Positions 42,501 to 63,730 are shown, counted from the first letter of the stretch. The stretch is 64,000 bases of DNA from Scenedesmus sp. PABB004 (GCA_014905635.1 JABVCE010000014.1:558001-622000); one strand, 5' to 3'. Notes: generated from the sequence alone by a model not told the origin. A program made the numbers and translations.

Positions 42501-44300
42501 CGGTGCGGGGGCCGCTCACGAGCGCCATGCCACCCAGGCGGGAGGGCTTGCCCCCCGCCGCCGCGGGCGCCGCGGCGCCGCCCTCGGCGCCGCCCGCCAG
42601 CAGTGCCGCCGCGCCGCGGCGGCCGCCGCCGAGCGGCACGGCCTTGGCCTTGAAGGCCGGCTGCGGCGCCTCGACCACCGCCGCGCCGGCGCCCGCGGGC
42701 GCGGGCGCGGACGCGCCGCCGCGGCGCTTGCCGGCGGCGGCGCCGCCGGGCTGCGACGCCGCCGACGCCGCCTTGCGCCGCGCCGCGGTGGGCGCGCGCG
42801 CGGCGAGGCGCGCCGTCACGTCGGCAAGCTGCTGCTTGAAGCGGGCCTCGATGGTCGCCTTGCGCTCCGCGCGCCGCGCGTCTAGCCGCGCCTGCGCGGC
42901 CGCGAGGGCCGCCTCGGCGCGGCCCGCGCTCGCGGCGGTGCGGTTGGCGGCGCGGCTCGCGGCCGTGACCGTCGCGCGCGCGCTGAGGCTCGCGGGCGCG
43001 ACGCTGGCGGAGGCGACCGCGGCCGCCTCGGCGGCCTTGGCCGCGACCGCCGCGTCGCGCGCGCGCGAGAGCGCGGCCTTGTGCGACTCGCTGATGCTGC
43101 TGGCGGCCTCCAGCTTCTTCGCGGCCGCCTCAGCGCGCGCCGCCTCGAGGCGCGCGGCCTTTGCGGCCACCGCCGCGGCGTACTCTGCATCGGCGGCCGC
43201 CTGCAGCTCCGCAACGCGCGCGGTCAGCGCCTCGCTGCGGTTGCGCGGCGCCGCGGCGCCCTCGGCCGGCGCCGTCGCGTTGGCGGGCTGCTGCTCCGTC
43301 GTCGCGTTGGCGGGCTGCAGCTCCGTCACATTGGCGGGCTGCAGCTCGGTCGTCGCGTTGGCGGGCTGCAGCTCCGTCGTCGCGTTGGCGGGCTCCTGCT
43401 CCGTCGCGTTGGCGGGCTGCAGCGGCGCCGCCGCGTCGGCGGGCTGCTCCATCGTGGCGGCGGGCGGCTGCTCCGCCGCAAGCTGCTCACTCTGCTGCTG
43501 CTGCTGCTGCTGCGCCTCCGCGGGCGCCGGCTGCTCCGGCTGCAGCTGCTGCTGCTCCTCCGCCGGCTGCTCCTGCAGCAGGCGGCGGCCGTCGTAGGTG
43601 GCGCCGTTCTCGGCCACGAAGCGCGTGTGCACGGGGCCCCAGTACTCGTTGATCGTCGGCGCCAGCTTGCGCACGTAGCCGTGGCCCGGCTTGCACACTG
43701 CGGGCGGACGGCGCGCGCGCGCGGGTGAGCAGCGCGGCGCGGGCGGCGCGGGCGTCCGCCCCCCCCCCCCCCCCCCCCCCGGCTGGCGTGCGTTGTCAGC
43801 AGGAGCAGGGATGCGAGATCATACAGGTCCCGGGGGGCTGGGGGGACCGGGGGGGGGGGCCTGGCCTGGCTGGCCTGGCCGCTGCACGCCGCTGCCGCTG
43901 ATGACCAGGCGCGCCCGCCGGTGACTCAGCCTCCCCGCGCGCCGGCGCTGCCCCGGGGCCTCTGTCGCGGCGCGGGCCATCGATAGCGGCGCCGCGACGG
44001 GCCGCGGGACCGGCTCCCGCGCCGCGCCGCGAACCGGAGCAGAAGCGGTCCCGGTCACTCACCGCAGGCGCCGGCTGAGAGCGCGAAACCTTGCGGTCCA
44101 TCGCGCGCGCAGGCGGTGCAGAGCGTCGAGCTGGCGCCCGGCGCGCGGGGCGCGCCGGACGTCGCGCACGCGACGCAGCCTGTCGCGGTGCAGCTGCCGC
44201 TGCTGGCCGCCCACAGCGGGGCGTTGGCCGAGCCCGGCGCCGCGGCGGCTGCCAGGATCAGGCCCAGCAGCCACGCGGCCAGGGCGAGGCGGCTGCCCAT
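39584..44300 (-). CDS. Large secreted/surface protein: Cys-rich N-terminus, tandem repeats, coiled coil, Cys-rich GCC2/GCC3-like module, Pro linker, seven cadherin/Big_9-like Ig repeats
   Basis: Signal peptide MGSRLALAAWLLGLILAAAAA; CMPCPPGS..CTPCPWGT; seven ~95-aa repeats of the form (Y/F)xP...C...DxFxYxVxDxYG...VxVxC. Confidence 0.8.
43272..43420 (-). repeat. Coding minisatellite (24-27 nt units, QPANATTEL)
   Basis: About five or six degenerate copies of gtcgcgttggcgggctgc. Each encodes an N-x-T sequon. Confidence 0.85.
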
Positions 44301-44779
44301 CGCGGCGCGGCCTAGTGCGGCTCCATGGGTGGGTCTCCGACGGGTCTGGCGGGTCGACGTGCTGGCTGTAACGTTTGGGGAGCGCACCGAATGGCGCGGC
44401 GGGGGCGGGGCCGACCCTACGTCGAGGCGCACGGCCCGGGAGAGGTCTGTCACATCGTTACACCGGCTTGCAGCGCCGGGGCACCAAAAAGCTGCGTTTG
44501 AGACCCGCAAAATGCGTCCTCGGGGCCGCTGCGGCCGCGGGCTGGCGGCGCGCGCGCACCGGACTTCACCTTGATCTTCGCGCTCGCGCTGCGCGGTGGT
44601 GTGGTGACCACTCTTCCGCGCCGGTGGCGCGTTGCCGCGCCCTGCTGCGCCCCGCCGCCAGGAGCCTCCCGACCTCCCGCGCGACCCAGCGCGACCCAGG
44701 CCTGCCGCCGCGCGCCGCCGGCGGCGTCACTCGGCGCCGCCGCTGTCGCCCGCGTGCTGCCGCGCGCCCGCCCGGAAGC

Positions 44780-47592
44780 TCAGAGGATGATGTTGGGCTG
44801 CTGCACCGACTCCTTGATCTCCTTGTGCGGCAGCACCACCGCGCCGTTGAGGTACAGCTCGTCCTGCAGCGGCGGCCCCGCGGGCGCGCGGCAGCGCGGG
44901 CGGCGGCGTCAGGCGGCGCGGCCACCGCCGGCGCAGCGCTGCAGCAGCGGGCGCTGCCGCCGCTGCTCGCTCGCGCGCCGGCTGTCCAGCGCACCTTGAC
45001 CTGCACGTCCTCGCCCAGCACGCAGTGGTTCTCCAACCGGCTCCACGCGCCCACGGTGCTGTCCCAGCCGACGATGCTCTTGTCCACCTGCAGGGCGGCG
45101 CAGGGCGGCGGTGCAGGGAGCGGGCACTTGGGGTTGGAGCCCGCCGCACCAGGCGCCGCCGCCGCGCTGGGGCCAGGCGGCCGCCCCCGCGCTGAGCGCC
45201 GCGCGGGGCGCCGCAGCTGCAGCCACGGCGGCGCGCGGCGCCGCGCGGGCGCGGGCGCGGGCGCGGGCTCAGCGCCCGCTGAGCAAGGCGCCGCGCCTTG
45301 CTGTGGTCCTTGATCGTGACGCCCCGCATGATCACGCAGCTGCTCAGCCGCACGCCCGCGCCGATGGTGCACCCCGCGCCGATGCACACGTCCGGCCCGA
45401 TCAGGCACCCCTGCGCGGCCGGCGGCGGCGCCGGCAGCTTGGCGGCAGCGGCGCCGCGCGGCGCGGCTCGCTGCCGCGCTCTCTCGCTGCAGCTGCCCGC
45501 GCGCGCGCGCGGCGTTGATGGCGCTGCCGCCGCGCGCGCACCGGGCCGATGCTGGCGCTGGGGTCGACCAGCACGTTGCCGGTGAACTGCGGCCCGCTGG
45601 CCAGCGAGGGGCGCGAGTGGATCTTGAGGCTGTCCAGGTGCAGCGTCAGCCCTGCGCGCGCGGCGGCGGCGGCGGCGACGGTGTGGTCAGGCGGCGCGCC
45701 CGCCGCGCAGCGCACCCCCGCCCCGCCCCGCCCCGCCGGCCGCGCCGCGCCGCGCCGCGCCGCGCCTGCCGCGCGCCGCACCCACCCTTGAGGTAGTCCT
45801 TGGGCTGGCCCACGTCCATCCAGTACCCGGGGAGAGTGAAGGCAAAGAGCCGCTTGTCCGCCGCGACGTGGGGGAAGACCTCGCGCTCGATGCTCGTCGG
45901 GCGGAGCTCGATGCGGTCCAGCACGCGCGGACTGCACACGTAGATGCCGGCGTTGATCTTGTCGCCAACAAACTCCTGTTTGGCGCGTGCGTGTGCGTGT
46001 GCGTGTGCGTGTGCGTGTGCGTGCGTGTGTGTGCGTGGCGCGGCGGCGGTCAGGGCCGCGGCGACCGCGGGCGCCCCGGCGTGCGGGCGGCGGCCGCGGA
46101 GAGGCGGCGGCGGCCGCGCGTGGCGTGCCAGCGGGGGTGGTCACCTTTGGCTTCTCCACAAAGCGCTGCACCTGGCCGTACTCGTCGATGATGACCACGC
46201 CGTACTTGCTGGGGTCGTCCACCTGCGTGCGCGCACATGTGCGTGCGTATGTGTGTGAGTGTGTGTGTGTGTGTGTGTCGGGGGGAGGGAGAGGGGGGGG
46301 GGTCAGGCGCGGCATCAGGCGCGGCGGCCGCGCGCTGCGCGGGCTCGCCGCCACTGCCAGCTGCCCGCCGCGAGCTGCCAACTGCCCGCCGCCTGCCGCC
46401 AGCTGCAGCTGTCAAACAGTGCGGCCCGCCGCCGGCGGCGCCGCGCGCCTTGGTGACGAGGATGGTCGCCTCGGCCTCGCGCGCCAGGTGGAAGTCCAGC
46501 ATGTCCTTCATCGGGTAGGGGCACACGACGTCACTGTCAGTAACAAGTCAGAGTGACAAAGACGGCCGGCGCGGAGGGCGGGGCGGCGCGGCGGACGGCG
46601 GCGGGCGTCGGCGGCGGGCTCCGCCGACCGGCGCGCTCGCTTGCCCCTGCTGCGCGCTGCCTCGTGCCGCTGCTGCAGCGCCTGCACCCCCGGTGCCGCG
46701 CCGCCTGTGCCGCGCCGCCTGTGCTGCCCCCCCCCCCCCCGCTGCTGCGTGCTGCCGCCGCTGCGTGCTGCCCCCTGCTGCGTGCCGCCCCCGCTGCTGC
46801 GTGCTGCCGCCGCTGCGTGCTGCCCCTGCTGCGTGCCGCCCGCGCCCTGTTGGCCCGCGCCCGCGCCCTGGCCCGCGCCCGCGCCTGTTAAGCACGAAGA
46901 AGGGCTTGCCCGAGCCGTCGTCCAGCAGGTGTCGCGCGAGCGCCAGCGGGCCGGCCGTGCCCATGGGCTCCGTCTCCTGCGCGCGGCAGCCGGTCAGCGC
47001 GGGCCCGCCGCCGCGCCGGTCCCGGCCCCCCGCGCAGGCGCCGGCGCGCGCACGCGCCTGGGAGCACACGATGCGCACGCCCAGCTTGTCGGCCCACTCC
47101 TTGATGAAGCCCATCATCACCTGCGGCCGAGCCGCCCAGCGGGGCGGGCGGCGCGCTGCTCGCGCCACGGGCGCGCCGCGCCAGCAGCGGCGGCGGCGGC
47201 TGCCCCCGCGGCCACGCGCGAGCGCTGCAGGGGCACCCGGCTGGACCCCAGGCTGGCCGGCCCAGCCGGCCGGACGGGCTGGCGCCGCCCGCGCCGGCGT
47301 TTCGGCCGGCCCGCCATCGCCGCCCCCGCCCGCACCTCTGGCTGGTAGTTGATTGCCAGCACCACGTCCGTCACGCCGGCAGCCTTCAGCGCCTGCACAG
47401 CACGCCGCGAGGGCGCAATTCGGGCGCGCGCCGCGGGGAGAGGCGGGCAGCAGCGGTTGCACGCCTCGCCCGCACCTCTATCTGGTGCACGATCATGGGC
47501 TTGTTGCAGAAGTCCACCAGCGGCTTCGGCTTTGTCAGCGTGAGCGGCCGCAGCCGCGTGCCGTAGCCCCCGACCAGGATGAGCGCCTTCAT
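44780..47592 (-). CDS. VTC1: GDP-mannose pyrophosphorylase (mannose-1-phosphate guanylyltransferase), 11 exons
   Basis: [69 protein letters not shown], hexapeptide repeats, [10 protein letters not shown]. Confidence 0.97.
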
Positions 47593-48335
47593 CGCGCCTG
47601 CTGCAGCGGCTGGTGGGGGCTGCGGCGGCGCGGCGCACGCCGGGCTGGAGCTGGAGCTGGGGAGGACGTGCCAGGCAGTGCGCCGCTCGGCGGGCCGCCG
47701 GCGCGCGTGGCGGCGGGGCGCCGGGCGCGGCGCACCGGCGTTGTGCCCTGCGTTGCAATCCCAGCCGCGCCCCAGCCTCCGCGCCCCTCCCCGGGTCAGC
47801 AGCGCACAAAATCATGTACAAAGCTCGCACAGGCGCCATCCTGTGAGGCCGGCAATAGAACTACACGCGCGCGCGCGCAGCGGCGCCGCGCGGTGGCGGG
47901 CCGCGCACGTGCTCGAGCCCCGGCGCAGGGCGGGGCCGCCCTCAACGACACACGCGCGCCGCGGACGCGGTCAACGTCCCCGGTCGCCCGCGCGTCAGTG
48001 GTCGTGTGTCGCCGGCCGCATGCACGCCCGGCAGGGCGCCATGCACGCCAGCGCGGCCGCGCCGGGCCGGCGGCGCCCGAGGCGCGCACGCTGTCTGGCG
48101 CCGCGCCCGCCTCGCGCCGCGCCGCCGGCCGGGCCGCCGGCCGCCGGCGCGCCGGTGCGGCGGTCCGGCGGGCGCTCCGGGCTGGTCGCGCCGAGCGCCG
48201 CCGCGCGCCCAGCCGTCCTGGACAAGGCACTGGGGCTGCGGCGCACCATCTCAACTGCCCTGGTCGGCAGGCCGGGCCGCCTCGTGGTCCCGGGCGGCAC
48301 AGGCTCTGCTGCGCCTGTCCATGTCGTTGTCGGGG

Positions 48336-50211
48336 TCAGATGTCCATCTCGTTGGCCATGCCGTAGTCGGGCTGCTCGTCGTCGTCGCTGTTGTACGCGT
48401 ACTTGCTGTCCTCCTCGTCCTCCTGCGCCCGCCGCCCAGGAGGAGCGCGGCAACGCAACGGCGTCAGCGGCGGCGTCGGCGCCGCCGCGCGCGCGTCTCA
48501 GCGGCGCCGCCCGCGCACCCGCCTCCCCCCCCCCCCGCCGCTGCGCCGCCGCCGCGCCGCGCCCGCCGCTGCGCCGCCGCCGCCGCGCCTTGTCCTCGCC
48601 CGCGGCGGCCTTGCTGACCGCCTTGACGCCGATGTAGAGGATGCGCTTGAGCTTCTTGTTGTAGAAGAAAAAGTTGAAGGCCCACACCGTCGCCTTCTCG
48701 CCTGCGCAGACGCGGCGTGCGTGCGTCGGGTGGCGGGCGCGGCGGGCGCTGCGGCGCGCGGGCCGTGCCCGCGCGGCGGGTCCCTCTCTGCGGCGCGGCG
48801 CACCGAACGGGTCGGTCTCGCCGTCGCTCTTGTAACTGTAGACGTCGCAGTCCTTGAGGTCGATGGCCTGCAGCGGCGGCAGCGGCGGCGGCGGCGGCGC
48901 GGGTGTGGCGTCGGCGGGCGCGGCGGCCGGGTCGCGCGGGCGGCCGCCGCTGTCGGGCGCCGCGCGCCGTGCGGTTGCGGCGCCGCGCGCCCTCGCCTCA
49001 CCTCGTCGATGGACGACCACAGCGTGTCCAGCAGCGGCGCCTCGCCAAAGCCGGGCGTGTTCTCCCAGACCTGCGCGCCGGCGACAGCGGCGGCGCCGGG
49101 TCGGCGCACGCGCCCCTTGCCGTCGACGCCCCTCATCTCTCCGCACGCCCGCGCGCGGCGGCACCGGAGCACTTGCAGCATGCAGCGCGGCACACACGCC
49201 CACACCCACACCCACACCCACACGCCCACACAGGAGCACACGCGCGCGCGCGCCTTTGAGACCTCGATGAGGTGCGTGTCGACCAGCTCCTCCGCGCGGC
49301 CGAGGCCGGCCTCCTTGCGGAAGTGGTGCGCGCGGAGCTGGCTGAAGTCGTAGTCGGGGTAGATGTGGTTCAGCGTGAGGATGAGGAAGATGAGCGTCTT
49401 GCGGCTGCGGGACGCGTCACGGGGGCGTTTGTACTCGTTATAACCGGGCGACAGGGCTCAGGGGCGGGGCGGTGGTGGCGCACCGCGCGAGCGAGGGCGC
49501 GCGAGCGAGGAAGGGCACGCACGAGGCTGCCGCCGCCACAGCTGCGGCCGCCGCGGCCGCTGCTGCTGGCGTTGGCTGCTGCTGCCGCTGCTGCTGCCGC
49601 CGCCACAGCTGTGACCGCAGCGACCGCTGCCACCGCTGCGGCCACCGCTCCACCCGCTGCCGCCGCAGCGACCGCCGCAGCTGCGCTGCCGCTGCGGGCG
49701 CGCTGCGCTGCCACGCGCGCCGCGCGCGCCGCGCACCTGGCGGCGTCGGTGAGCGGGCCGACGGGGGAGCGCGAGAGCTCCAGCGGCGAGCTGCCCGCGC
49801 TCGAGGCGACCTGCACCTCCGCGTCGAGGCTGCGGCTGAGCTTCTTGTCCAGCCCCGCCAGCTTGCCTGCGCAGGGGTGGGCGCAGCAGCGGCGTGAGGC
49901 CGCGGCGCACACCCCTCGCCAGCAGCGGCGCCGCTTGCCAGCAGCGATGCAAGCGCAGCGGCGCCCGCCGCGCCGCACGCAGCAGCGGCGCCGCGCGCGC
50001 ACAGGAGTAGGCCTCCAGGTCGCCGTAGACGATGTAGTCCCCAACGTCCACGTGGTCCAGGAAGCTGTTCAGCCTGCGATGCCACCCCGCGCGGCGCAGG
50101 CCGTGGGGCGCCGCGCTGGCGCGGGGCGAGCGGGCCACGCGTGCAGCATTGTGGTGGGCGCCCCGCCCGGGGCCCGCACCGCGAGAGCTGGCTAATGTCG
50201 AGGAACTTCAT
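48336..50211 (-). CDS. MAF1: Repressor of RNA polymerase III transcription MAF1
   Basis: MKFLD..GDLEAYSCKLAGLDKKL, SPVGPL, SRKTLIFLILTLNHIYPDYDFS, VYSY..DPFGE..VWAFNFFFYNKKLKRILY. Confidence 0.95.
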
Positions 50212-50629
50212 GATGTCGGAGCGCTTCTGAAGGGCTCAACAGCAGGTTATATCGAATGCATCGATCGCCCCGGGAAGCAGCATATTTTTGCGGGCCCCCG
50301 CGTCGCGGGGTGGCGTGCTGGCAGGCAGGCAGCGCCTGGGACGGACGTCTGAGGCGAGGGCCACGCGTGGGCGGCGCCCGTGAGCGCGGAGCGGCCTCGG
50401 CTTTCATCGCATCTTTGCGCTCGCCCTTGAAACGCATGGGCGTGCTCCCCGGCCTCGCTACCGCCGTGGGAGCGCCGGCCGGTGGTCTCAACACCGGCGG
50501 CTGGGGGGATGGGGGCTGCCGGGGCGCCCCGGGGGGCGCCCCGGCGCCGCGGGCGCGCGGCGCGCGTGCGCGGCGCTGCCACCGCCGCGCGCGCGCGCCG
50601 CCGCCGCCAACACCGACCATGGGCATCCT

Positions 50630-50853
50630 CTGATCGCCGGCCGCCTGAAACAGGCCACAGCGGCGCGAGGCATGACGGTTTGGGACCGGCCCGCAGGTCG
50701 GTGCCCCGCGAGGGGTCGCCCCCACCCGGAACGGGTGACAAGGCGAGAAACGCACGCGCACACGCCTGACCTAACCTGGCAACACAACACAACAGCAAGA
50801 GGCCTTTTATCGTCCTGCCCAGGACGGAGAGCGCAGCGCACCGCACACGCCGC
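50630..50853 (-). ncRNA. Candidate Fanzor omega-RNA scaffold (boundaries unknown)
   Basis: Lies immediately 3' of the Fanzor stop and contains at least five adjacent stem-loops. The position matches known Fanzor omega-RNAs. Confidence 0.45.
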
Positions 50854-52705
50854 TCACGCCGGGGGGTCCACCGCGGCGGCGGCCGCCTGCCGGAACGCGC
50901 CGGCGAGGCGCGCGCCGCCCGCCGTGCCGCGGCCGCCGCGCAGCAACTCGTGCAGCGTGAGCGCGCAGATGTTGCGCGCCGCGTTGTCGTCGCGCGGCGC
51001 GACGACCGTGCACCCGGGGCACTGCACCAGACCATAGATGCCCCGCAGCTTCTCCACGCGCGCCCCGCAAACAGAGCAGGTGATGCTGGTCCGGTGCTCG
51101 TCCATGAGCACCGCGGCGACGCGCCGGCGCGCGTAGTACGTGCGCAGCAGCGCCAGCAGCGCCTGCCGCGGCGGCCCCGGCCCCGAGATGCAGCCCCCCA
51201 TGCCCAGGCTGGCGTCCCCGATGCCCAGCACCACCGCGGGCAGGTCGGCGGGCAGGCGCGCGTGCTGCCGGACGCGCCCGCGCACAAAGACCCGGCCGTA
51301 TGCAGTCAACTGAATCGCCGCATGCAGCGCGCGCTGCTTCAGCCCGTGCTTCCGCAGCCGCCACGCACACTCTGCACGGCACGCAAGCAAGCTATATGCG
51401 AATTCATTGTCCAACACATGATGCACCCGGCCGTTGCGCCACGCCCCGGCGGCGGCGACGCTCGTGCCCGAGTAGGCAGGGACGCGGTTCAGGCAGGCAT
51501 GCACGCAGTCGCCGCCGCCGGGCGGGCGGCGTTCATACCGCCCCGGCCGCCCCGGCCGCCCCTGCTGCCACAGGCGGTGCCGCTCGATCCCGCGCGAGTC
51601 GCGGTGCGCGGCGGTCTTTATTCTAATGATGCGCTCCGCCTCGTAGCGGCGGCCGTGGTCGCCGCGGTGGCGCGGCGCGTTGGGGCAGCGCCGCTGCGCG
51701 ATGCGGCGGTGCGCGACGCGCGTGCAGCCCGGGCCCTGCCGCCAAGTCGCGGCGCATATCATGCGCGCCCGGCCCGGGTCGATTCCGACTATGCGCACGC
51801 CCGCGTGCACGGCCGCGGCCGCGCCGTGCAGCGCGTGCCCCGGCGGCAGGCCATCCACGCCGCGCAGCTCGCACGGGTCGAGCGGCAGCGCGTCGAGCGC
51901 CGCCTCGTCGGCCACGCCGTGCGGCGCCAGCGCGTCGCAGAGCAGCCGCCGCGCTGCCGCCGCGCCCGCGCGGTGCTCTGCCGCGCGCTGCGCCGCCTTG
52001 GCGGCGCGCGACTGCTGGCCGTGGCGCGGGGCGGGGTCGGCGGCGCCCTCGACCCGCACGCGCACGTGCAGCGCCGCCAGATCAAACGTCACAGAGCCCG
52101 CGAAGCGCGTGTTGGCGTGCAGCACGCCGCGCGCGCGCCCGGGGTGCCGGCCAAAATCAAAATATGAGTCCCAGATGGGATCATAATCCCCATGGGGCGG
52201 CGGCGGCGCGGGCGGCGGGGCGCCTCCGCCCGGCGGGGCGGTGTTGGGCGGCGGCGGCTGGCCTGCCGGCTGGCCCCCCGCGAGCGCCTTGGCCTGACGC
52301 GCGCGCAGCGCAGCATCCAGCGCCTGCATGCCCGAGGTGGACAGGTGCAGGTGCTGGGTGCCGTACTTGGGCACCGGCGCCAGCGTGAAGGCGCGCCGCT
52401 TGGGCAGCGCCACGCGCGCGGCGTGCCGCGAGCGCAGGGCGCGCAGCACCTTGCACGCGCCCGCGACCGCGATGAGCGCGTCGGGGTGCTGCCCCGCGCC
52501 GCCGGCGCGCTGCGGCGGCTGCGCGCCGCCGCTGCGGCCGCCGGGCGGCGCCGGCGCCGCCGGCGGCGGCCCCGCGCCGGCGGCGGTCGCCGCAGCCAGC
52601 ACCGCCTCGAGCGTCGCGCACACCGCGCGGCGCCAGCCGGCCGGGACATCGCGACGCAGCGCCGCGACAGCCGCCGCCGCCTCCTCGAGCGTGCGCGGCG
52701 CGGGC

Positions 52706-52738
<33 letters not shown>

Positions 52739-53859
52739 GCCGGCGGCGCCGGCGCAGCGCGACCCTGCGCGGCCGCTGTGGCCGCCAGGTAGCCGCGCGC
52801 GGCCGCCAGGTAGCCGCGCGCGGCCGCCAGGTAGCCGCGCGCGGCCGCCAGTCGGGCGCCGCAGTCGCCCAGCAGACGCGCGCCCTGGTCGCGCGCGGCG
52901 CGCGCGGCGTCCGCCGCGCGGCGGGCCGCGTCCGCGTCAGGCGCCGCCGCCGCGCCGTGCGGTCGCGCGAGCCGCCGCTGGTGCTGCACGAGCGCCGCGT
53001 CGCGCTCGTGGTGCTGCACCACGGCAGCCTGCCACTCCGCCTCCACGGCTGCGAGGTCGGCCTCCACCGTCGCGTCGCCGGCGGCGGTCAGCGCGGCCAG
53101 CGCCAGCCGCAGCCGCTCCGCGGCCGCGGCCGGCAGCGCCGCGCCCGGCCCCTGGCCCGGCGCCGCGCCCGGGCCCTGGCCCGGCGCCGCGCCCGGCGCG
53201 GCGCCTTGCCCCCGGGCGCGGAGCAGCCGCGCCTCCGCGACGGCCAGCCGGCGCCGGAGCGCCGCCGCGTGCGCGTCCTTGCGCTGCAGGCGGCGCAGCC
53301 GGTTGCGCGCGTGGTCGGGCGGGCCCGTCATACCTCCCTGGACCGCAGCGCGGCTGGCGACCTCCCGCTGCAGGTCCTTGAGGGGTTCCTTGCGCAGACG
53401 CACGGCCGCCTCGCTGGCATCCACGGCGGCGCGCAGGCGCTGCACCGCCGCCTCGAGCTTGCCCAGCTCGCGCGCCCGCTGCAGCTCGCGCAGGCGCGGC
53501 TCCTGGGCGCTGGCGTCCAGCAGCTTGGGGGGCGCCGGCGGACGCTGGCCGCGGCTGCGGCTGCTGCTGCTGCCGCTGCCGCTGCCGCTGCGCCCGCTGC
53601 TGCCGTCCAGCGCCTCTGCCAGCGACTCGACGGCCGCCGCGAGCGCGCCGGCCGACGCGGGCTCCGGGGCCGCCCCGAGCGACGCGGCGCGGCGCAGCAT
53701 CGCCTCCAGCGCCGGCCGCGCCGCCGCGCCCTGCTGGGCTGCCAGCGAGTCCGCGAGCCGCGGCGCGCAGGCAGCAAACATGTGCTGTTGGCCGAGCATG
53801 ACGACAAAGTCGCGCGCGACGCGGCGCGACTTTGTCGTCATGCTCGGCCAACAGCACAT
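50854..53859 (-). CDS. Fanzor (eukaryotic TnpB-family, Fanzor1-like) RNA-guided endonuclease, intronless; start codon uncertain
   Basis: RuvC-I IVGIDPG, RuvC-II LMDEHRTS, Zn finger CSVC..CPGC, RuvC-III RDDNAARNI. Upstream FTLAPVP..LHLS, WDSYF and RFAGSVTFD resemble Fanzor1 blocks. Confidence 0.88.
52780..52851 (-). repeat. 21-nt tandem repeat x3.4 inside the Fanzor ORF (AAARGYL)
   Basis: Exact copies of ggccgccaggtagccgcgcgc start at 52780, 52801 and 52822. Confidence 0.95.
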
Positions 53860-53860
53860 G
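53779..53860. repeat. Perfect 37-bp inverted repeat with 8-nt spacer
   Basis: 53779-53815 (catgtgctgttggccgagcatgacgacaaagtcgcgc) is the exact reverse complement of 53824-53860. Confidence 0.97.
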
Positions 53861-54126
53861 CGCCATGGCGTCGGCGTCGCCCTCCCGGTACGCCAGGCCC
53901 TCGAGCCCTCGAGCTGCCGGGCCAGGCTCCCGCCCTGCTGGCTCGAGCTGCTCCGAGCGGGCCCTCGAGCTCAATCGGGCGTCAGCGCGTTCCAGCCCGC
54001 CCAGCGACGGCAGGCGCTCGCGGCGGCGGCGCGCGGCACACTGCGCAGCGCGCGCCGGCACACGTGAGCGCGCGGGCGCTCTGTTGTGCGTCCTCCTGCG
54101 CGGCCTCCCACCGCCCCGGCAGCCGC

Positions 54127-55617
54127 TCACTGGCGGCCGGCCGCCGCCTCGGCCGCCTGCAGCGCCGGCGCCGCCGCGGCCTGCGCGGGGAGGCGAAGCG
54201 CGCAGACCGACGTGCGATACCGCCCCGTGCTCACGCTGCCCTCGTCCGCGGCGCTCGACAGCCGCGTGCTGTAGGCGACGTAGACCAGCGTAGACCGGCT
54301 GGGGTCGTAGAGCCGCCGCACGCGCAGCGTCTGCGCGGCGCGGCGCGGCGCGCGGTTTGCGGGGCTCGGCCAGGCGCGCTCCTCCAGGCTGCAGCCCAGC
54401 GCCCCCTCTCCGCGCGTGACCCCCCTCTGCACGTGCCGCACCTTGTCCTTGAAGATGGAGAGGCCCTTCTTCTCGCTGAACACCTCCTTGCCTGCGGCCC
54501 GGGGCGGGAGAAGCGAGCAGCATCGCCGGGTTGGTGGGCTGCCGCCTCGACCACCCCACGCGCCAACAGCAGCCGGCCCGCCGTGCCGCGCGGCGCCGCG
54601 CGCACCCTCGACGCCGCCGAGGCCGGCGGGGTTGGTCACGGCGGCGTCGGGCGCGATCGAACACGTGAGGCTCGCCTGGCTCGGCTCGGCGAAGAAGTCC
54701 TGCCGCGCGCGCGGGCGGGCCGGCGGGCGGGCCGCGCGGCGGGGACGCGGGCGGGCGGGCGGCGTGAGCGCGCGCGGCCCTGCCGCGATCGTACGCCGCC
54801 CGAGCGGCGGGGCGGCCACGCGTGCGTCTAGACTCAGCGTGCCGGCGCACACACCTTCTGAAGCTTGTCTACGAGGCTCCTCTTGAAGTCACTGAAATAG
54901 ATCGTCACGCCCGGCACTGCGCGGCGGGCGGCACGGCGGGCGCGGGCGTCGGCGGGGCGCGTCCTGCGAGCGCGGCGACGTCGTGCAGGCGCGGCGCCGT
55001 GTTGCGGGCGCGGCGCCGTCCTGCGAGCGCGCACCCTCGGGGTCGTCCAGGGCGTTGACCTCAACCGAGTCTTTGAACAGGAAGCCACTTGCCTTGCGGG
55101 CGTTCAGGGGCGCGCGGCGGCGCATCCATGCGAGCACAGGGCGCGGGCGGTGCGGGTCGGGTCGTGGCCACCGACGGGCGGGGCGGCGCGCGGGCAGCAG
55201 CAGGGCGCGGGCGCGGCGGGCGGCACCTGAAACTCGCCGATGCGCTCGCGTGCCGCCTGCGCGCTGCCTGCGCGCAGCAGCGAGGGCGGCGGCGGCGGCG
55301 GCAGGCGCCGCGCGTTGGGGGCGGGCCGCCGCGCGGGCGGGACGCCGCTGGCAGGCACGGCGGCGCGTGCGCGCGCGCGCGGGGCGGCCGCGGCGCCGCG
55401 CACCCGGCGCGGCCAGCAGCGCCGCCGCGGCGAGCGCGGCGCCCGCCGCGCGCCAGTCTGCGCCGCCGCGCTGCGCCGCCGCGGAGACGCCACGCTGCCG
55501 CCGCTGGGTGGCGGCTGCTGCTCCCTGGCGACCGCTCGCAGTGGCGGCGGCGAAGGGCCGGCGCGCGCGGCTGGCAGCGGCACCGCCGGACAGCGAGGCG
55601 CGGGCGGCGGTCTGCAT
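54127..55617 (-). CDS. CreA-family protein, probably plastid/thylakoid-targeted
   Basis: ASGFLFKDSVEVNALDDPEVPGVTIYFS, EPSQASLTC, EVFSEKKGLSIFKDKTLRVRRLYDPSRSTLVYVAYS. Transit-like N-terminus. Confidence 0.85.
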
Positions 55618-56396
55618 CGCGGCGGGTGGTGCAGCGCAGGGCGGGTGGGGCGATCAGGGCGTGCGGCAGGCGCTCTGGTGGCGGGCGCCGGCGGCCGCGG
55701 GCGAAGGGCGACGTGGCGGTGCAGCGGCGAAACCGCGCGGCCGCCGCCGCAACCAGCGCCCCGTCGGGTGTCCGGAGCGCGCACACCGGAGCGTGATTGG
55801 CCAGACGCGAGGCCCCGAGGCGTCCCCGCTGCAGCGCACCGGAGCAAGGCCCGTGCCGACCGCGGAGGCTTTTGAGTCGATCGTTGCTTCGATCGCTGCT
55901 CTTGGCGGTGCGCGGGCGCTGTTTGCTGCACGGGCGCACACGCCAGGCCCGGCGCTGGGCACCTGCAGGCCAGGCCCGGCGTCGCGTGCGGGCGTCCTTG
56001 GACCGAGCACGGCAGCGCAGGGCCAGCCGGGACTGAGGGAGGCTCGCAGCCGCAGCCGGGGCGCCTGCAGCGCTGCGGGGGCGCCCTTGGGCCGGGGCCA
56101 TCTGCCTCGGCCCGCGCCGGGCAGCCTGGCGCGCGTGGGCCTGGGCTCGCTCGCGTCAGCGGCTCAGCGCGGGCAGGCCCATCCATCCCGCAGCGCCACG
56201 CGCTCTTTCCGAGCCCGCGCGGCCGGCAGCAGCAGGCCCTGGGCTTCCGCGAGCCAGGCCGCGCCCGCCCGCCCCTCACGCGCGTCCCCCCGACCCGCCA
56301 CCCGTCCCGCAGGCGCCCGCGACAGCGGCGCGCACCCCCGCACCCCGCCTCGCGCGGCCGCGCCGACCCGGCGCGGCGCCGCGGCAGCGGCGGGGC

Positions 56397-58570
56397 ATGT
56401 CTGGCGCGCCGCGGAGCGGGCCCTACGCCATCAACGGCTCGGGGGCGGCGTTCCCCAAGATCTATGGCGCCGACGGCGCGCCCGACGGCGACGGTGCGCG
56501 CGCCGCGCCGGCGCGCGCGCGCCGCGCGGCTCGGCGCCGCCGCCGGGGCGCGGCGCCCACAGCGCGCGCGCCGCCCGCCGCCGCCCCGCAGGCCGCGGCG
56601 CGCCGCTGAGCAGCGCCATGGGCAGCGGCTACCCGGCGCCCATGTACGGCCTCAACGGCGGCGCGGGCGGTGCGGGCGGCTACCCGCCCGCGGGCGCGAC
56701 GCCCGGCAGTGGCTGGAGCAGCAGCACGGGCGGCCCGCCCGGCAGCGGCCTGCCCGGCGGCAGCACCTGCACGAGCGGCAGCGTGCCGCTCCCGGGCGGC
56801 GCCGGCCCGCCCGGCGGCAGCAGCGGCGGCGGCAGCCTCCAGCAGCCGGGCCTCAGCGCCGGGCCGCCGGCGTCCTACCCCTACGCCGGGGCGCTCGGCG
56901 GCGGCGCGGGCGGCGGCGGCGGCGGCGTGCCGATGTCGGCGCCCGGCGTGCTGGGCTACGCGCCGTCGGCGCCGAGCAGCGGCCCCACCTACGGGTCGAG
57001 CTACATCAGCGCGAGCGGCGGCCCGCCCAACCCCGCGGCCCGCCCCGCGGCCGCGAGCCTCGCCGCCGCCGCGCTCGCGGGCGTCGCGAGCAGCAAGGCG
57101 TCCGCGCTCGGCGGCCTGCCGCTGCACGGCGGTGGCCTCGCGCCGCCCACGAGCCGGCCCCAGCTCGGCGACGACCTGTTCTGCAGCTGCCCCATGGTCT
57201 GCGTCGTCGGCACCAACGCGGGCGCGCCGCACGCGGTGCCGCTCACCATCATGAGCCTGCGCTTCGACGTCTCCTGCCACATCAGCCAGGCCTTTGTCGA
57301 CGCGCAGCTCGTCTGCCAGTACCCCGCGGTGCGGCGCTCGCGGCGCCCGCGGCGGCGCGCGGGCTCCGCGGGGGTTAGTGAGGCGCGCGCGCGCGCGGCG
57401 CCGCGGAGCGCCGCGCCCGACGCCGCCGCGCCTCGCCGACTGCCCGCCCCGCCCGCCTGCACCGCCGCGCCGCGCCGCCAGTCCTGGAACGACGCGCCGC
57501 TGGTCTTCTTCTTGCCCAAAACCGCGGGTGGGTCCTGGGTTCAGGCGCCAGGGCTTGGTCCCTCCCACGCTCTCCAGGCCGCCGCGCAGCGCGCCGGCCG
57601 CGTGCCCCGGGCCTGCTGCGCCCGCCGCCCACGCCGCCGCGCCCGCTCCCCCGCCGCTCCCGCCGCCAGACACGACCATCACCGAGCTGGCGATTGAGAA
57701 CATGGTGCGGCCAAGCGTGTTTGCCACGGCCGTGGTGCCGGTGGACGACGTCAAGAGGTTTGCCGGCAAGGGCGGCGGTGAGCGCGGGGCGCGGGGGCCG
57801 CGGGGCGCGGCGCGGGGCGCAAGGCGCGGGGCGGGGCACGGCGGGGGTCGCGCTGACGCCGCCGCGCCGCGCCGCGCAGCGGGCGGCGGCCCGAACAACG
57901 CGGTGGGCGAGCCCGAGGACGGCTCGGGGCCCGACCCGGAGCTGCTGATGCTGCCGCTGCCGCCGGGCATGCCGGGGGACCAGTACCGCGTGAAGCTCTC
58001 CTTCTTCCTGCCCATGGCCTTTGACGTGGCGCAGGGCCGATACGTGCTGCGCCTGCCGACGACGGTGCCGCCGGTGCGCGGGGCCGCCCGGGCGCGCGCG
58101 GGCGCGCGCGCACAGGCCGCGGCGGCGCACCCGCGCCCGCGCCCGCGCGCCGCCGACGCCGCGTGTCCCCCGCGCGGCGCCCGCCCGCCGGCGCAGGTGT
58201 GCCTGGCGCAGGGCGCGAGCGTGAACAGCGTGCTGGACGTGAGCGTGACGATCAACACGGGTGCGCGCTGCGCCGCCGCGCGTCCCCCGGCGCCCCGCCG
58301 CGCGCCCCTGCACCCGGCTGCGCTGCCCCGCGCGCGCGAGCCCCCACGCGCCCCCGCGCGCGCGCGTGCGCAGGCAACGGCGAGGAGGTGGACCTGCTGG
58401 TGCCGAGCCACCCCACAGCCATCATGGACAGCCAGCGCGGCAGCATCGCGTTCGAGCTGGACAACAGCCAGGTCTGGCGGCGCCGCGGGCCGCGCGCTGC
58501 GCTGCGCGCGGCGCAGCGCGCGGCGGGCCCGGCCGGCAGCCGGCCGCGCCGTGGTCTGACGCACGTGCGT

Positions 58571-58650
<80 letters not shown>

Positions 58651-61564
58651 GGCGCAGCCGTGGGACAACGGCGACTTCATTGCCGGCTACAGCGTGTGGC
58701 GCGACAGCATGACCGCGACCGTGCACGTCGAGCCGCCGCAGCCGGGGCTGCCCGACCAGCGCGGCACGTTTGCGCTCAGCATCACGCCGCCGGGTGCGCG
58801 CCGCGTGGCGGCGCGGGCGGCGCCCCGCCGCGCCGGCCGTCGCCGCCGCCGCAGCCGGCGCCGCCGCCGCTCACACGCACCGCCCGCCGCGCTGCCGCCC
58901 CCAACAGGCCCCGAGCACAGCGTGCGCTTCCCGCGCAGCGTGGTGTTCATGTTTGACCGCAGCGGCTCGATGACGGGCGACCCCATCCGGTGCGCGGCGC
59001 GTGCGGCGCGGCGCGGGAGGCGGCGCGCCGCCGCGGCGCACGAGGCGGCACGCCGCGCGGCGCGGGGCGCGGGGCACGGGCGCGCGGCGCGGGGCGCGGG
59101 GCCCCGACGCCCTCCCGCGGCGCGCGTGCTGTGTGTGCTGTGTGACCACTGCAGGTACGCCAAGGCCGCGCTGCTCAACGGCCTGCACATGCTCGGCCCC
59201 GAGGACCGCTTCACCGTCGTCGCGTTTGACCACGAGCAGCTCTGGTGGACCGGTGCGCCCCGCCGCGCCGCGCCGCCGCCGCCGCCGCGCGCGCCGCCGC
59301 CCTCCCCGTCCGCACGCGCCCACGCGCGCCCTCATCCGCCCACGCGCGCGCCCACACCCCTGCACGCCCATGCAACCACGCACACACACACGCTCAGACC
59401 GGCTGATCGAGGCGACGCCGGAGAACGTGGTGACGTGCATGCACTGGGTGAACGACGACCTCTCCGCGCGCGGCACGACCGACATCCACGGCCCCCTCGC
59501 GCGCGCGCTCAAGCTGCTCAGCGGCGCGCCGGGCCTGCCGCTCGTGTTCCTGCTCACAGACGGTGCGCGGCGCCGCCGCCGCGCGGCCAGGCCTCAGGGC
59601 GCAGGGCGGCCGGCCGGGCACCCCCAAGGAAACCACCCCTTCGCCAGAGGGCGCAGCCGTTGACCGCCCGCCCGCCCGCCCGCCCGCCCGCCCGCCCGCG
59701 CGCGCGCGCAGGCTGTGTGGAGGACGAGCGTGACATCTGCAGCATGGCCGAGGCCGCCATCGCCGCGGCGGGGCGCCCCGGCGACGCGAACAACGGCCTC
59801 GGCGCGGCGCCGCTCGGCAGCGCGCTCGGGGGGCCGCCGCCGAGCAGCGGCTCGGCCGTGAGCGCGGTGCACAGCGTGCCGCCGCCGCCGGCGGCGCCGC
59901 CGGCGCTCGCGCCGCGCGTCTTCACCTTTGGCATCGGTGCGCCCCCGCCCGGCTGCCGCCGCCGGCGCCGCTGCGCCGCGCTGCGCCCGCTCACCCGCAC
60001 ACAACCAACCACAACGCCCTCAACACGCACACCACACACCCCCCCTCCAGGCCCCTACTGCAACCACTACTTCCTCAAGCGCCTCGCCGCGCTGGGGCGC
60101 GGCATGGCGGGCCTCGCGTTCCGCCCGCACGCCATCCAGGCGGGCATGGAGGCGATGCTCGCTGCCGCGGCGCTGCCGATGCTGAGCGACGTCCACATCC
60201 GCGTCGAGGTGCGGCGCGCGGCACGCGCTGCGCGCTCGCCGCCTTTTTTTTCAGTTTCCCGCCAAAGCCCTCAGTCGCGCAGGGTTCAGGTGATGACGCC
60301 GCCGCCGCCTCCCCGTCCGCCTGCCCGCCCTCCCCAGGGCCTGACGAGCGTCGAGCTCTACCCGTTCCCAATCCCCGACGTCTTTGTCGGCTGCCCGCTG
60401 CTCGTGAGCGGCAAGTTTGAGGGCGACTGGCCCGAGAGCGTGGAGATTGCGGGCACCCTGCCCGACGGCACGAGTGAGCGGGCAGGGCGGGGAGGCACCG
60501 ACGCGCGGCGCGGCGCAGGGGGCTGGCTGCGGCCCGCACCGCGCGCCTGTGGGAGGGAGGGCCGGCGCGGCACGCGCCTGGCTGACCCCTCCGGCGCGCC
60601 GCCGCGCCGCCGCGCCGCGCGCAGGCTGGTGCCAGGAGGTCCCGACGCTCGCGGCGGGCGAGCTGCCGCTGCAGAAGATCTTTGCCAAGAGCCAGCTCGA
60701 CCTCATGACCGCAAACGCCTGGATGGCGGGTGCGCGCCGCGCCGCGCCGCGCCACGCCGCGCCGAGCTCGGCGCCGCGGCGCCGCCTCGGCGCTCGGCCG
60801 CAGTGGGCGCGCCGCGCGTGCGGCCCCGGAAGGGCCCCCGCGGCATGCACTGAGCGCCGCCCGCCGCGCCGCGCCGTCGTGCAGGCGACCCGCCGGCGAT
60901 GGTGCGCGCGATCGTAGACCTCTCGGTCGCGAGCGGCGTTGCGAGCGCGCACACGGCGATGGTGGGCTTTGAGACGACGCCGGAGCGCTATGAGCAGATG
61001 CAGGCGCGGCGCGGCGCACGGCGGCGGCGGCTGCGGCGCGCGGCGCTCGGCGGTGGCGGCGGCTGCGGGCCGCTCTCTGCCTGCCGCGGCGGCCCGGCCG
61101 CGGCACGCGCGCGCGCAGCCCTCTCTTCAGATGGAGCACCCCCGCCGACAGCCCTCGGCCCACCGCGCGCCGCCGCGCCGCGCAGGCGGTGCCTCCGAGC
61201 GAGCGGCGCAAAAAGATTATCAAGTGGGCCATCGGCGGCGCCGCGGGCGTGGGCCTCGTCGCCGGCGTCGCGGCGGCGCTCACGTTTGGCGACCTCGCCG
61301 GCACCATCGGCAACCTTCCGGTGCGCGCGGCGCCGCGCTCAAACGCCCGCCGAGCCGCCCGCGCTGCCCCGTGCCGCGCGCGCTGAGCCGCCCCGCGCTG
61401 CCGCTCCGCGCCGCGCCGCGCCGCGTCAGGTCGGGGACGCCATGGGCGCGCTCGGCGGCGACCTCGGGGGCTTCTTTGAGAGCCTCGGCGGGGGCATGGA
61501 CTGCTGCGGCGGCTGCGACTGCGGCGACTGCGGCGACGCGTGCGGCAGCTGCCTCACCTGCTGA
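56397..61564 (+). CDS. von Willebrand factor A domain protein (ITIH/VWA5-like) with C-terminal hydrophobic segment and Cys-rich tail
   Basis: MIDAS VFMFDRSGSM, FTVVAFD, GTTDIHGPL, VFLLTDG, RVFTFGIGPYCNHYFL. Many short introns. Confidence 0.88.
58571..58650. repeat. (GCC)n trinucleotide run in a VWA intron
   Basis: Directly visible pure run just upstream of the acceptor. Confidence 0.95.
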
Positions 61565-62104
61565 GCCGGCGCCGCCGCGCGGGGAGGCGAGGGCGGGCAA
61601 GGGGTGGGAGGGGGGGGGGGGGGGGGCTGTGACAGTGGCATCCGCCTGGGCGGCGGCGGGGCACGGCACGGCACTCGTTGACTGACCGCGTGGCGGCGCG
61701 GCGCGGCGCGCCGCCCCTGTACACCCACACGCACGCCCACGCGGCGGCGGGCGGGCGGGTGACGGCGACCGCGCCGGCCCGCGCTGCTGCTGCATGTGCA
61801 ATGCACGCAAACGCACTGCCATACGTATCGCTCGCGTGAGCGTTGACGCTGACTCTTGACGACTCTGCTGCACAGCCTGACAAAGCCACACTCACCCCCC
61901 GCGGCCGCGCAGGCGCCGTTGCTGCCGTCGCTGGCCTTGCTGCTGCTGCGCGCGCGCGCGTGGGACGCTAGCGACACTCCCGGCCGCTGCCTCGGCGCAC
62001 GGTCGGGGCGGGTCCATTTAACCGCAATCCCGGCACCAACGTTCGCGTGCTGCGGCCCCGCAACTCGGCCGCGCGACTGCAGCCTCGCCTCGCCTCGGCA
62101 GGCC

Positions 62105-62703
62105 TCAGTCTGCGGGCGGGGGCGCGGGTCGGTCGGCGCGGCCAGCGCGGCCAGCGCGGCCAGCGCGGCCAGCGCGCGGTGCCCGCAGCCCGCCGCACCC
62201 TGCAGCGGGGCGCGCTCCTCCTGGCCCGCGGCCTCCGCCTCGGCGGCGCCGCTGGCGCCACCCGGCGCGCCCTCCTCCTCGCGCCCGCCGCCCGCCTCGG
62301 GCGCGGAGCCCTCGGCGTCGCCGCCGGCGCGCGCCAGCTCGGGCGCGCCACCGGCGCTCGCCGGCTCGGGCGCTGAGCCCTCGGCGTCGCCGCCGGCGCT
62401 CGCCGGCTCGGGCGCGGCGCGCTCGGCGTCGCCGCCGGCGCTCGGCTCGTCGGGGCGCGGTGTCTTCATCTCCTGCTTGCCCTGGAGGATCTCGCCGCGC
62501 TCGCCCACGAGCTGGTCGTCGTTCTCCGCCCCCGTGTCGCTAGAGAGCATCGCGACGCGGCGCCGCGGCGCCGGCCGCGGCGCGGGCGACGGCGCGGGCG
62601 CGGCGCCGCTGCGCGGGCGCGGCGCGGGCGCGGGCCGCTGGGCGCGCCCCACGCGCCTGGACGTGCCAGGGCGGGCGGACAGGGCGCGGGAGGAGGCGAG
62701 CAT
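62105..62703 (-). CDS. Small acidic, probably organelle-targeted hypothetical protein with internal SAGGDAE repeats
   Basis: MLASSRALSARPGTSR is transit-like. Exon SSDTGAENDDQLVGERGEILQGKQE... The last intron and stop are inferred. Confidence 0.55.
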
Positions 62704-62920
62704 CTTTGCGGCGGCGGGCGGCAGCTGCGACGCGTGACCGGGCGGCGGCGTGCGCCTGGCAGCGACGGGCTGCGCGTGCGTGCCGGCCCTCGGCGGCGGC
62801 TGGGGGGATGTGTCGTGGGGCGGCCGCCGCGCCGGTGGAGGTGGCGCCGACGCGCGGCGTGCTGAAGAACCGCCCGCCGCCGCGACAACGTTCGCGCGTT
62901 GCTGGCGCCCGCGCAGTTGC

Positions 62921-63730
62921 TCATTCGCCCGCGCCGCCGCCGTCGCGCACGTATCGCGGCAGCATGTGCAGGAGGAGAAATCCAAACAGGTTGAAGGACC
63001 AGAAGGCGGCGTTGGCGGCCGCGAGCGCGGCGTGCCACGGCCCGAGCGCCGCGCCGCGCGCGCACCACGCCGCGAGCGGCGCGAGGCGCCAGGCGTTGAA
63101 GCCGATCGGCACGAGCAGCCGCGGCAGCAGCGCCCAGCGCGTGCTCGTTGCCTCGGCCGCCACCTGCGCAGCATGCGCGGCACGCGGCGCCTCGGTGGAG
63201 GTGCCACGGCGTGCAGGGTGCGCGCGCGCGGGTGCTTTCGCTGCTGCCGCCGCCGCTTCTGCCGCCGCCGCTTCCGCCGCCGCGCCTGGGCGGCAGTGAG
63301 GTAGAGGTGGGGCGCCAGGGCGGCCAGCAGCTCCTGGTCCCCCCGCACCGACGCGGCGGCGGCGAGGCCGCCAGGCAGCAGCAGCGCGAGCACGCCGGCG
63401 ACGGCCGCGTAACTGCGCACCCAGGCCTCCGCCGCGAGCGGCGCGACGCGCGGCGCGCGCCGGGCGGCCGCCGCGGCCGCGGCAAACCGCGTGGCGCTCG
63501 CGGCGGCCAGGTACGCTGGCCAGGCGAGGCTGAACGCGAGGTCGCGCTGCGGCACGTGCCCTGCCGAGCGGCGCGGCGGCGCGAAGTGCGCGCGGGCGGG
63601 CTGCAGGCGGCAGCGGCGCAGCGGCGGCGGCCTCACCTGTCGCCGCCAGCGCCACGCAGCCCGCAGCCAGCACCAGGGCCGCCGGGCTGATGGCCGCAGC
63701 CGCCGGCGCCGCTCGCCGCGGCTGCGACAT
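62921..63730 (-). CDS. Uncharacterised multi-pass membrane protein of a plant/algal family
   Basis: Hydrophobic exons DLAFSLAWPAYL, APHLYLTAAQ / RLLVPIGFNAWRL, LAAANAAFWSFNLFGFLL..LPRY. Two introns, the second with a GC donor. Confidence 0.7.
   Translation of the reverse strand: MSQPRRAAPAAAAISPAALVLAAGCVALAATGEAAAAAPLPPAARPRALRAAAPLGRARAAARPRVQPRLASVPGRRERHAVCRGRGGRPARAARRAARGGGLGAQLRGRRRRARAAAAWRPRRRRVGAGGPGAAGRPGAPPLPHCRPGAAAEAAAAEAAAAAAKAPARAHPARRGTSTEAPRAAHAAQVAAEATSTRWALLPRLLVPIGFNAWRLAPLAAWCARGAALGPWHAALAAANAAFWSFNLFGFLLLHMLPRYVRDGGGAGE

Follow-up and report, generated by a model that had tools for sequence, protein, structure and literature searches.

The locus analyzed here raises the question of whether one uninterrupted open reading frame (ORF), lying between intron-bearing genes of a green alga, encodes an RNA-guided nuclease of the Fanzor kind, and whether that gene is intact or a remnant. 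The ORF occupies positions 50,854 to 53,859 on the minus strand of a 64,000-nucleotide stretch of Scenedesmus sp. PABB004 (GCA_014905635.1 JABVCE010000014.1:558001-622000; hereafter the window), and had been proposed, in what is called here the sequence-only reading, to be a stand-alone Fanzor between the host genes CreA and Maf1. The answer reached below is that the ~3.9-kb spacer between CreA and Maf1 in this GC-rich chlorophyte probably holds a full-length, apparently intact Fanzor1-type gene on a non-autonomous mobile element. Coordinates of all features are given in Table 1.

Family membership was examined by profile and pairwise searches. The Pfam zinc ribbon Cas12f1-like_TNB (PF07282) was matched at residues 908-964 (E 1.4e-9; 38.4 bits vs a gathering cut-off of 26.3), so that the motif set exceeds chance, and the NCBIfam TnpB and Cas12f models matched the same stretch far below their cut-offs (TnpB, 19 bits vs 100-425). 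Residues 470-1001 were searched by phmmer against 1.84 billion representative proteins and returned 26 proteins at E ≤ 0.001 (best E 4.5e-19, 37% identity). A TNB domain was found in 23 of the 26 hits at E ≤ 0.01 and exceeded the gathering cut-off in 18. The hits were metagenome proteins, one of them source-labelled as a gammaproteobacterial metagenome-assembled genome; the phmmer match P0003 was rejected as a homologue, being an unrelated repeat protein. By BLASTP, the closest homologue (P0029) was aligned over residues 464-601 (E 1e-5) and 689-973 (E 3e-28). Word-indexed protein searches, in which scoring was confined to the 8000 candidates with the most words in common and Ala-rich words probably crowd the list, gave no match for the core among proteins of 550-1752 residues, and P0028 (described below) as the sole match both with a profile and over shorter proteins. 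A single-protein scan of viral contigs yielded one locus (L002; 39% identity over 51 TNB residues). A metagenome locus (L001) was discarded as a chance pattern match; its contig is of bacterial type and carries methyltransferase genes but no Fanzor.

The profile used for placement within the family (A1) was built from the query and eight homologues. It matched Fanzor1 of Spizellomyces punctatus (SpuFz, 8gkh_P) over nearly its full length (positions 6-427; E 2.3e-14), a span that includes the F-x-x-x-P strand of WED, RuvC-I, the zinc ribbon and RuvC-III. Mimivirus Fanzor2 (E 1.3e-13), Cas12f and TnpB were reached through the TNB region only, and PpFz was matched at E 2.9e-11. Because A1 covers WED, RuvC and TNB of SpuFz but only TNB of Fanzor2 and TnpB, the core is, as judged from these alignments, nearer Fanzor1 than Fanzor2 or TnpB across its whole length.

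Residues 395-1001 were modeled with AlphaFold2 from a 28-row alignment (mean predicted local distance difference test score, pLDDT, 58.7), with pLDDT of 73-91 in the RuvC/TNB part. Foldseek placed SpuFz entries at ranks 1-4 (E ~6e-7), followed by Cas12f, PpFz, mimivirus Fanzor2, GtFz and TnpB. Alignment of model residues 281-600 with VIA-align gave a Z score of 12.7 with Cas12f and the same score, 11.6, with SpuFz, PpFz and ISDra2 TnpB. The hidden Markov model and structure searches that the sequence-only reading had proposed as its check thus predicted a RuvC fold, with best matches to Fanzor, Cas12f and TnpB and to no other family, and its assignment to the TnpB/Fanzor RuvC nucleases was upheld by the Pfam TNB match, the SpuFz profile match and the predicted fold. 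The same reading had taken the whole ORF as Fanzor; this is demonstrable for residues ~464-994 and not for residues 1-463, for which no homologue was found.

The active site was then compared with that of known Fanzors, in which RuvC-II is rearranged: the canonical strand is without Glu and a conserved Glu lies ~45 residues downstream (accessible text of Jiang et al. 2023, PMC10530073). Since the Glu-less strand VVLGIGDAS and the Glu of DEHRTS each have an aligned counterpart in SpuFz, the predicted catalytic triad is D694, E921 and D957, of this rearranged Fanzor type, with E921 ~44 residues past the canonical strand. The codon positions previously given for GIDPG, DEHRTS and RDDNAARNI were all exact, with the CxxC pairs between the latter two. 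The claim of an intact-looking triad stood as to the residues themselves and was amended in one respect: the DEHRTS Glu is the displaced Fanzor-type residue, not the canonical RuvC-II Glu of TnpB. The D, P and G columns of GIDPG were invariant in the eight homologues, as were R, D, N, A and N of RDDNAARNI across homologues.

Integrity of the core was assessed by conservation and not by length. The claimed intron-free ORF was present and open over 1001 codons, and its 3-kb length had been regarded as a noteworthy sign. This was not borne out: the window is 79% G+C and contains 139 stop-to-stop frames of at least 250 residues in 64 kb, 7 of them of at least 1000 residues. Stops being rare at this composition, ORF length is no evidence, and the case rests on homology. 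Homology to P0029 ran in one frame over residues 464-973 with no frameshift. Of the 52 columns that do not vary among the five closest homologues the query kept 45, and of the 20 that do not vary among all eight it kept every one; in a leave-one-out comparison of conserved columns it kept 52 of 63 (83%), vs 79-93% in the homologues themselves. Coding differences in metagenome contigs were synonymous in 9 of 17 cases and at third positions in 10 of 17 (a small, selected sample, among the 40 of 89 rows listed). The Fanzor1 gene is apparently intact, to judge from these comparisons, with its catalytic residues kept.

Codon usage was almost fully adapted to the host. G+C at third codon positions (GC3) was 0.938 in the N-terminal extension and 0.906 in the Fanzor core, vs 0.946 in host genes (652 pooled codons). 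The patches of A/T-ending codons pointed out earlier are real and mild (GC3 0.80-0.81 at residues 526-600 and 776-850), and the dips coincide with conserved Tyr/Asp/Phe/Asn-rich motifs. Fanzor1 proteins have a disordered N-terminal region with a nuclear localization signal; here a long N-terminal extension is present, and basic runs in the protein were limited to RRR at 202, KRR at 487 and RRR at 911.

Table 1. Features of the Fanzor locus in window coordinates (a dot in the strand column marks a feature assigned to neither strand).
Feature	Position	Strand	Details
Fanzor ORF, protein P0001	50854..53859	-	1001 codons + TGA stop, standard code
Fanzor1 core, residues ~464-1001 (WED-like strands, split RuvC, TNB)	50857..52470	-	homology
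RuvC-I catalytic Asp (predicted), D694 in GIDPG (692-696)	51778..51780	-	read-out; column invariant in homologues
Canonical RuvC-II strand VVLGIGDAS (876-884), no Glu	51208..51234	-	aligns to SpuFz 'VMGDWSD'
Displaced RuvC-II Glu (predicted), E921 in DEHRTS (920-925)	51097..51099	-	aligns to SpuFz 'LLDEYKTS'; A1 column invariant
Zinc ribbon CSVC (928-931)...CPGC (947-950), TNB	51010..51078	-	PF07282
RuvC-III catalytic Asp (predicted), D957 in RDDNAARNI (956-964)	50989..50991	-	read-out
N-terminal extension, residues 1-463	52471..53859	-	Ala/Arg/Leu/Gln-rich, predicted long helices, in-frame repeats
Perfect inverted repeat, 37-nt arms, 8-nt loop	53779..53860	.	100% complementary
Noncoding stretch 3' of stop, candidate site of omega RNA/Fanzor RNA (fRNA)	50596..50853	-	also in metagenome contigs
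3' segment with raised contig depth	50596..51570	-	metagenome contigs, 2-10x flanks
Deletion variant, residues ~956-989 including RuvC-III motif	50892..50993	-	102 nt replaced by 9 other letters, in frame
Last CreA-domain exon + stop codon, upstream host gene	54127..54330	-	PF05981, E 1.1e-8, in ORF 54130-54888
Maf1 gene ATG	50209..50211	-	ORF 49438-50211 starts MKFLD

Further copies were sought in the window and in public sequence. No second copy was found in the 64-kb window by blastn and tblastn of the locus. A public hypothetical protein with the source label Scenedesmus sp. PABB004 (P0028; 271 residues) is 100% identical over its first 115 residues to residues 887-1001, and continues into an Ssb-like OB-fold domain (PF21473) that is absent from the whole window, which places P0028 at a different locus or in a differently arranged genome. 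In its gene model the Fanzor stop appears to be spliced out at an overlapping GTGAGC (50853-50858), and the protein is probably a chimeric mis-annotation of another Fanzor copy. This chimera of a Fanzor tail and an Ssb-like gene was the only related annotated protein found.

Four freshwater or sludge metagenome runs yielded short contigs that match the window, host genes on the flanks as well, at 97-100% identity (30 of ~4,350 records were examined individually), and seven metagenome runs matched 6-12% of the sampled words. Depth over the 3' segment was 29-31 vs 2-4.8 elsewhere in X3, 13.3 vs 4.2-6.3 in X2 and 6.6-10.5 vs 2.3-6.5 in X1, and showed no clear excess in X7 (3.7-6.9 vs 2.3-6.5); in all depth comparisons made here, contig depth is not equivalent to copy number. 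The raised depth hints at extra 5'-truncated copies. The deletion variant was carried by X3, where it is the high-depth form (depth 31.1), and by X7 (record 26), and the intact form by X2 (record 12) and X1 (record 3). No contig bridging an element end was found among the four metagenome runs.

Signals beyond the coding end were examined on the same contigs and in the window. Metagenome contigs extend 145-258 nt or more beyond the ORF end, and the noncoding stretch that is the candidate guide-RNA site is carried by X1 record 2, X7 record 26, X2 record 12 and X3 record 20. The usual polyadenylation signal of chlorophytes is TGTAA. The minus strand between 47,000 and 56,000 showed neither TGTAA nor any other obvious signal; TGTAA occurs 8 times on both strands of the whole window, and none follows the coding ends of CreA, Fanzor or Maf1, so the alga may use another signal. 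A 9-mer common to the CreA and Fanzor stop regions was considered as a target-site duplication and dismissed as within chance for the match list. Helitron2 elements have asymmetrical terminal inverted repeats (ATIRs) of 8-15 bp and insert after TTTT or a T-rich tetranucleotide, vs hairpin arms of 37 nt here (accessible text of Bao and Jurka 2013). Inverted matches of at least 9 nt between 53,700-54,200 and 50,150-50,900 were GC-rich low-complexity sequence only, and no minus-strand TTTT lies between 53,860 and 54,130, a weak test; with neither ATIR nor TTTT found, although the element ends were not placed either, the locus was not assigned to Helitron2.

The genomic setting was established by domain scans of stop-to-stop ORF translations: 113 (at least 70 residues) from 44,000-60,000, and 81 of 84 (at least 80 residues) from 38,000-43,798 and 60,100-64,000, the remaining three being covered by the first scan. 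The predicted neighbors were confirmed, the CreA stop lying 267 nt upstream of the Fanzor ATG and the Maf1 ATG 642 nt downstream of the ORF; the Maf1 domain (PF09174) was matched in ORFs 48501-49457 and 47998-49416. CreA, Maf1 and, beyond Maf1, a GMPPB-type nucleotidyl-transferase all share the Fanzor's strand, and the coding sequence of each is distributed over several frames, as expected of intron-bearing genes, which gives the Fanzor a eukaryotic nuclear setting. No transposase, Rep or helicase domain was detected in the 194 ORF translations covering 38,000-64,000 (~10 kb either side). The domains present there were NTP_transferase/Hexapep/GMPPB_C, Maf1, CreA, Big_9/cadherin-like and DUF7733, all of host type, in agreement with the description of the gene as stand-alone. 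Among these, the Big_9 (bacterial Ig-like) and cadherin-like domains (E 2.4e-12 and 6e-9) lie in ORF pieces at 39587-42515 (minus strand) that are probably part of a large, intron-split host surface protein, and two minus-strand frames at 61429-64000 carry halves of a DUF7733 domain in a host gene that runs past the window end. Mirror-frame ORFs lie opposite real genes in the window, and ORF-based reasoning is unreliable throughout this genome.

It is possible, if doubtful, that the protein is shorter than the ORF, with residues 1-~460 representing leader sequence on the 5' side, host coding sequence that is separate or was captured, or differently joined exons, and with translation starting at an internal Met or in an upstream spliced exon. 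The extension had no homologue by sequence search (including BLASTP vs P0012 and P0029), no fold match at E ≤ 0.001 (Foldseek vs PDB, with a single-sequence model), and only chance-level scores (≤ 0.83) by language-model features (Atlas). P0029 (644 residues) has only ~45 residues before the common WED region, the plus-strand mirror frame at 52168-54831 (887 residues), which overlaps the Fanzor ORF and shares its second codon positions, is also open, and the hairpin spans the first ATGs. The start of P0029 is itself uncertain because the metagenome gene call ignores introns. Other observations argue for translation of the extension. GC3 exceeded G+C at first positions (GC1), and GC1 that at second positions, along the whole ORF frame; in a codon model built from 1190 host and core codons the ORF frame outscored the other five in all 8 extension sub-windows; and the periods of all tandem repeats, including one of 21 nt x 3.4 at 100% and (GCT)10, were divisible by 3 and frame-preserving. 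There is no in-frame Met between residues 177 and 511, and a start after the extension would therefore drop the first WED strand (RRAFTLAPVP, 488-497). In the AlphaFold2 single-sequence model the extension formed four helices, each 39-59 residues long, and pLDDT averaged over blocks of 10 residues was mostly ~60-89. The extension is probably coding, and not demonstrably Fanzor. Its perfect or near-perfect repeats at 52707-52851 and 53136-53205, in which (GCT)10 encodes Gln10 and the 21-nt unit (x 3.4) encodes AARGYLA, next to a 24-nt unit (x 2.6), look like recent expansions. At the 5' edge of the ORF the inverted repeat, ~57% GC amid 79%, was predicted to fold as RNA at -83.9 kcal/mol (z -13.4; none of 200 shuffles folded as well). 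It had no flanking duplication, no partner sequence at the 3' end and no other copy within the window; a metagenome contig (X1 record 8) stops in its loop at 53822, which fits a palindrome that is real in related strains. A far-reaching and decidedly improbable reading would make this locus the only full-length master of a young Fanzor1 family whose copies become 5'-truncated, active, with a unique helical N-terminal module and a functional 82-nt 5'-boundary hairpin that would serve either as a terminal structure for rolling-circle-like transposition or as a translation-gating switch; if true, it would be a new architectural Fanzor variant with a built-in regulatory hairpin.

Two further explanations, a silent relic and a domesticated host gene, were weighed against the mobile, intact Fanzor1 gene favored here. 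That the locus is a young dead insertion, its frame open only through stop scarcity and no working nuclease expressed, was judged unlikely, yet much of what counts against an intact gene also speaks for it. Long open frames arise by chance at 79% GC, as the seven frames of at least 1000 residues illustrate, and openness alone is no proof of selection. The hairpin encloses the first four in-frame ATGs (M1, M7, M21 and M27; the next are M54 and M177), and, within an mRNA leader, a structure of this kind would keep a scanning ribosome from initiating; the 267 nt to the CreA stop leave scant promoter space, and no RNA run was among the listed sequencing runs with the locus. In the protein, the strands of WED, the domain that holds the guide-RNA scaffold, align to SpuFz in the A1 profile, but WED/REC had pLDDT <50 in the AlphaFold2 model with no strands there, and the WED motif TDG(V), present in 4 of 5 homologues aligned there (TDA in the fifth), reads FDLA. 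No guide-RNA fold signal was obtained: the 3' region was indistinguishable from shuffles (z -0.87 over 261 nt; -1.96 over 451 nt), and Rfam gave no family match, only sub-threshold microRNA-model matches on hairpin and repeat DNA. Searches for a pair of terminal inverted repeats (TIRs), a target-site duplication or element ends returned only GC-rich low-complexity matches, and the depth evidence for further copies is subject to the limit given above. In one metagenome the abundant copies are those deleted for RuvC-III, and CrFNuc-1 of Chlamydomonas, the one chlorophycean relative to have been characterized, formed a ribonucleoprotein without cleaving in vitro (accessible text of Jiang 2023, PMC10530073). 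A dead insertion is harder to reconcile with ~540 homologous residues free of frameshift or stop, with the 20 family-invariant columns and all catalytic residues and zinc ligands kept, and with variants biased to third positions. Less probable again is a domesticated Fanzor, one fixed copy serving as a host gene, to which the N-terminal extension perhaps gave a new role, the 3' copies then being unrelated dead fragments. Host-like GC3 in extension and core, the shared strand and tight spacing with both neighbors, the retained conserved residues, the synonymous excess among the variants listed, and the flank-level depth of the extension and of residues 455-508 (X1 records 5-8, X2 13-14, X3 22) are all compatible with it. 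It is opposed by the identical 115-residue tail beside a different gene in P0028 and by the raised depth over the 3' kb, which points to recent copying; in addition, domesticated Fanzors are not known to be established (no literature search was aimed at this point), and this was counted against it.

If the gene is, as preferred here, an intact Fanzor1 on a non-autonomous element, its protein would be expected, by analogy with SpuFz, CrFNuc and TnpB, to bind a guide RNA whose template is the gene's 3' end together with the sequence downstream. So guided, it might cut matching DNA beside a short target-adjacent motif and thereby help the element to persist or spread. The transposase that moves the element would be encoded elsewhere, its other copies would mostly be 5'-truncated or internally deleted, and the 463-residue extension would be a lineage-specific helical or disordered addition translated with the core.

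Known systems were compared with the locus, in part by their published descriptions as far as these are accessible. The best profile and Foldseek matches were both to SpuFz1 (PDB 8GKH, 9CEU-9CEZ), which shares in one alignment the Glu-less RuvC-II strand, the DExxTS Glu, the zinc ribbon and RuvC-III, and like the present gene is a single intron-free ORF; its element, SPu-1, is small and non-autonomous (Bao and Jurka 2013). Identity in structural alignments was only 14-18%, SpuFz1 is ~630 residues long vs 1001 here with the 463-residue extension, and SPu-1 has 33-bp TIRs and TA duplications (Bao and Jurka 2013), of which no counterpart was found here. Bacterial IS200/IS605 TnpB (ISDra2 TnpB, 8H1J/8EXA) and Cas12f share the RuvC and zinc-ribbon fold and the motif order (Z 11.6-12.7), but carry Glu on the canonical RuvC-II strand, where it is displaced by ~44 residues here; the setting of the present gene, between intron-bearing genes, is eukaryotic.

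Among green algae, the CRe-1/2/3 elements of Chlamydomonas reinhardtii (CrFNuc, Fanzor1c; non-autonomous Helitron2), compared by description only, resemble the locus in their chlorophycean host and in having no transposase of their own. They have a hairpin at the 5' end, and one lies at the 5' edge of the ORF here, with arms far longer (37 nt) than the 8-15 bp described. They include 5'-truncated and internally deleted copies with an over-abundance of 3' ends (accessible text of Bao and Jurka 2013), a pattern resembling the depth pattern and deletion variant here, contig depth again not being copy number; P0028, which looks truncated, points the same way. The guide RNA of CrFNuc maps to the 3' untranslated region (Jiang 2023, PMC10530073). 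The CRe genes differ in having 5-10 exons, vs a single frame here. The Auxenochlorella Fanzor repeat, by its description in the accessible part of Craig et al. (PMC12633428), is likewise green-algal, without a recognized transposase, and is the most abundant repeat of that genome; its host is of a different class, Trebouxiophyceae. Klebsormidium nitens KnFNuc, also compared by description, is an intron-less Fanzor1 of the green lineage, present in multiple copies and with demonstrated cleavage (Jiang et al. 2023, PMC10530073), but in a streptophyte host.

The locus appears to be unreported in the public record. The terms 'Scenedesmus', 'PABB004' and the P0028 accession were absent from the readable supplements of the Jiang 2023 and Saito 2023 Fanzor censuses, and among the matches listed for literature joining 'Fanzor' and 'Scenedesmus' was PMC12633428, whose accessible part does not discuss this locus. 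As far as the accessible parts of the sources go, stand-alone non-autonomous green-algal Fanzor elements are already known (Bao and Jurka 2013; Jiang 2023; PMC12633428), as are intron-less Fanzors (Jiang 2023, PMC10530073). For biology broadly the find is an expected one, because stand-alone, truncated, non-autonomous green-algal Fanzor elements were described in 2013 (Bao and Jurka, accessible text). For the family, it adds Scenedesmus-like Sphaeropleales to the algal lineages carrying Fanzor genes. Fanzors are eukaryotic RNA-guided nucleases mined for genome editing, and an intron-free Fanzor1, apparently intact and adapted to an extreme-GC algal genome, would be a usable candidate for expression tests.

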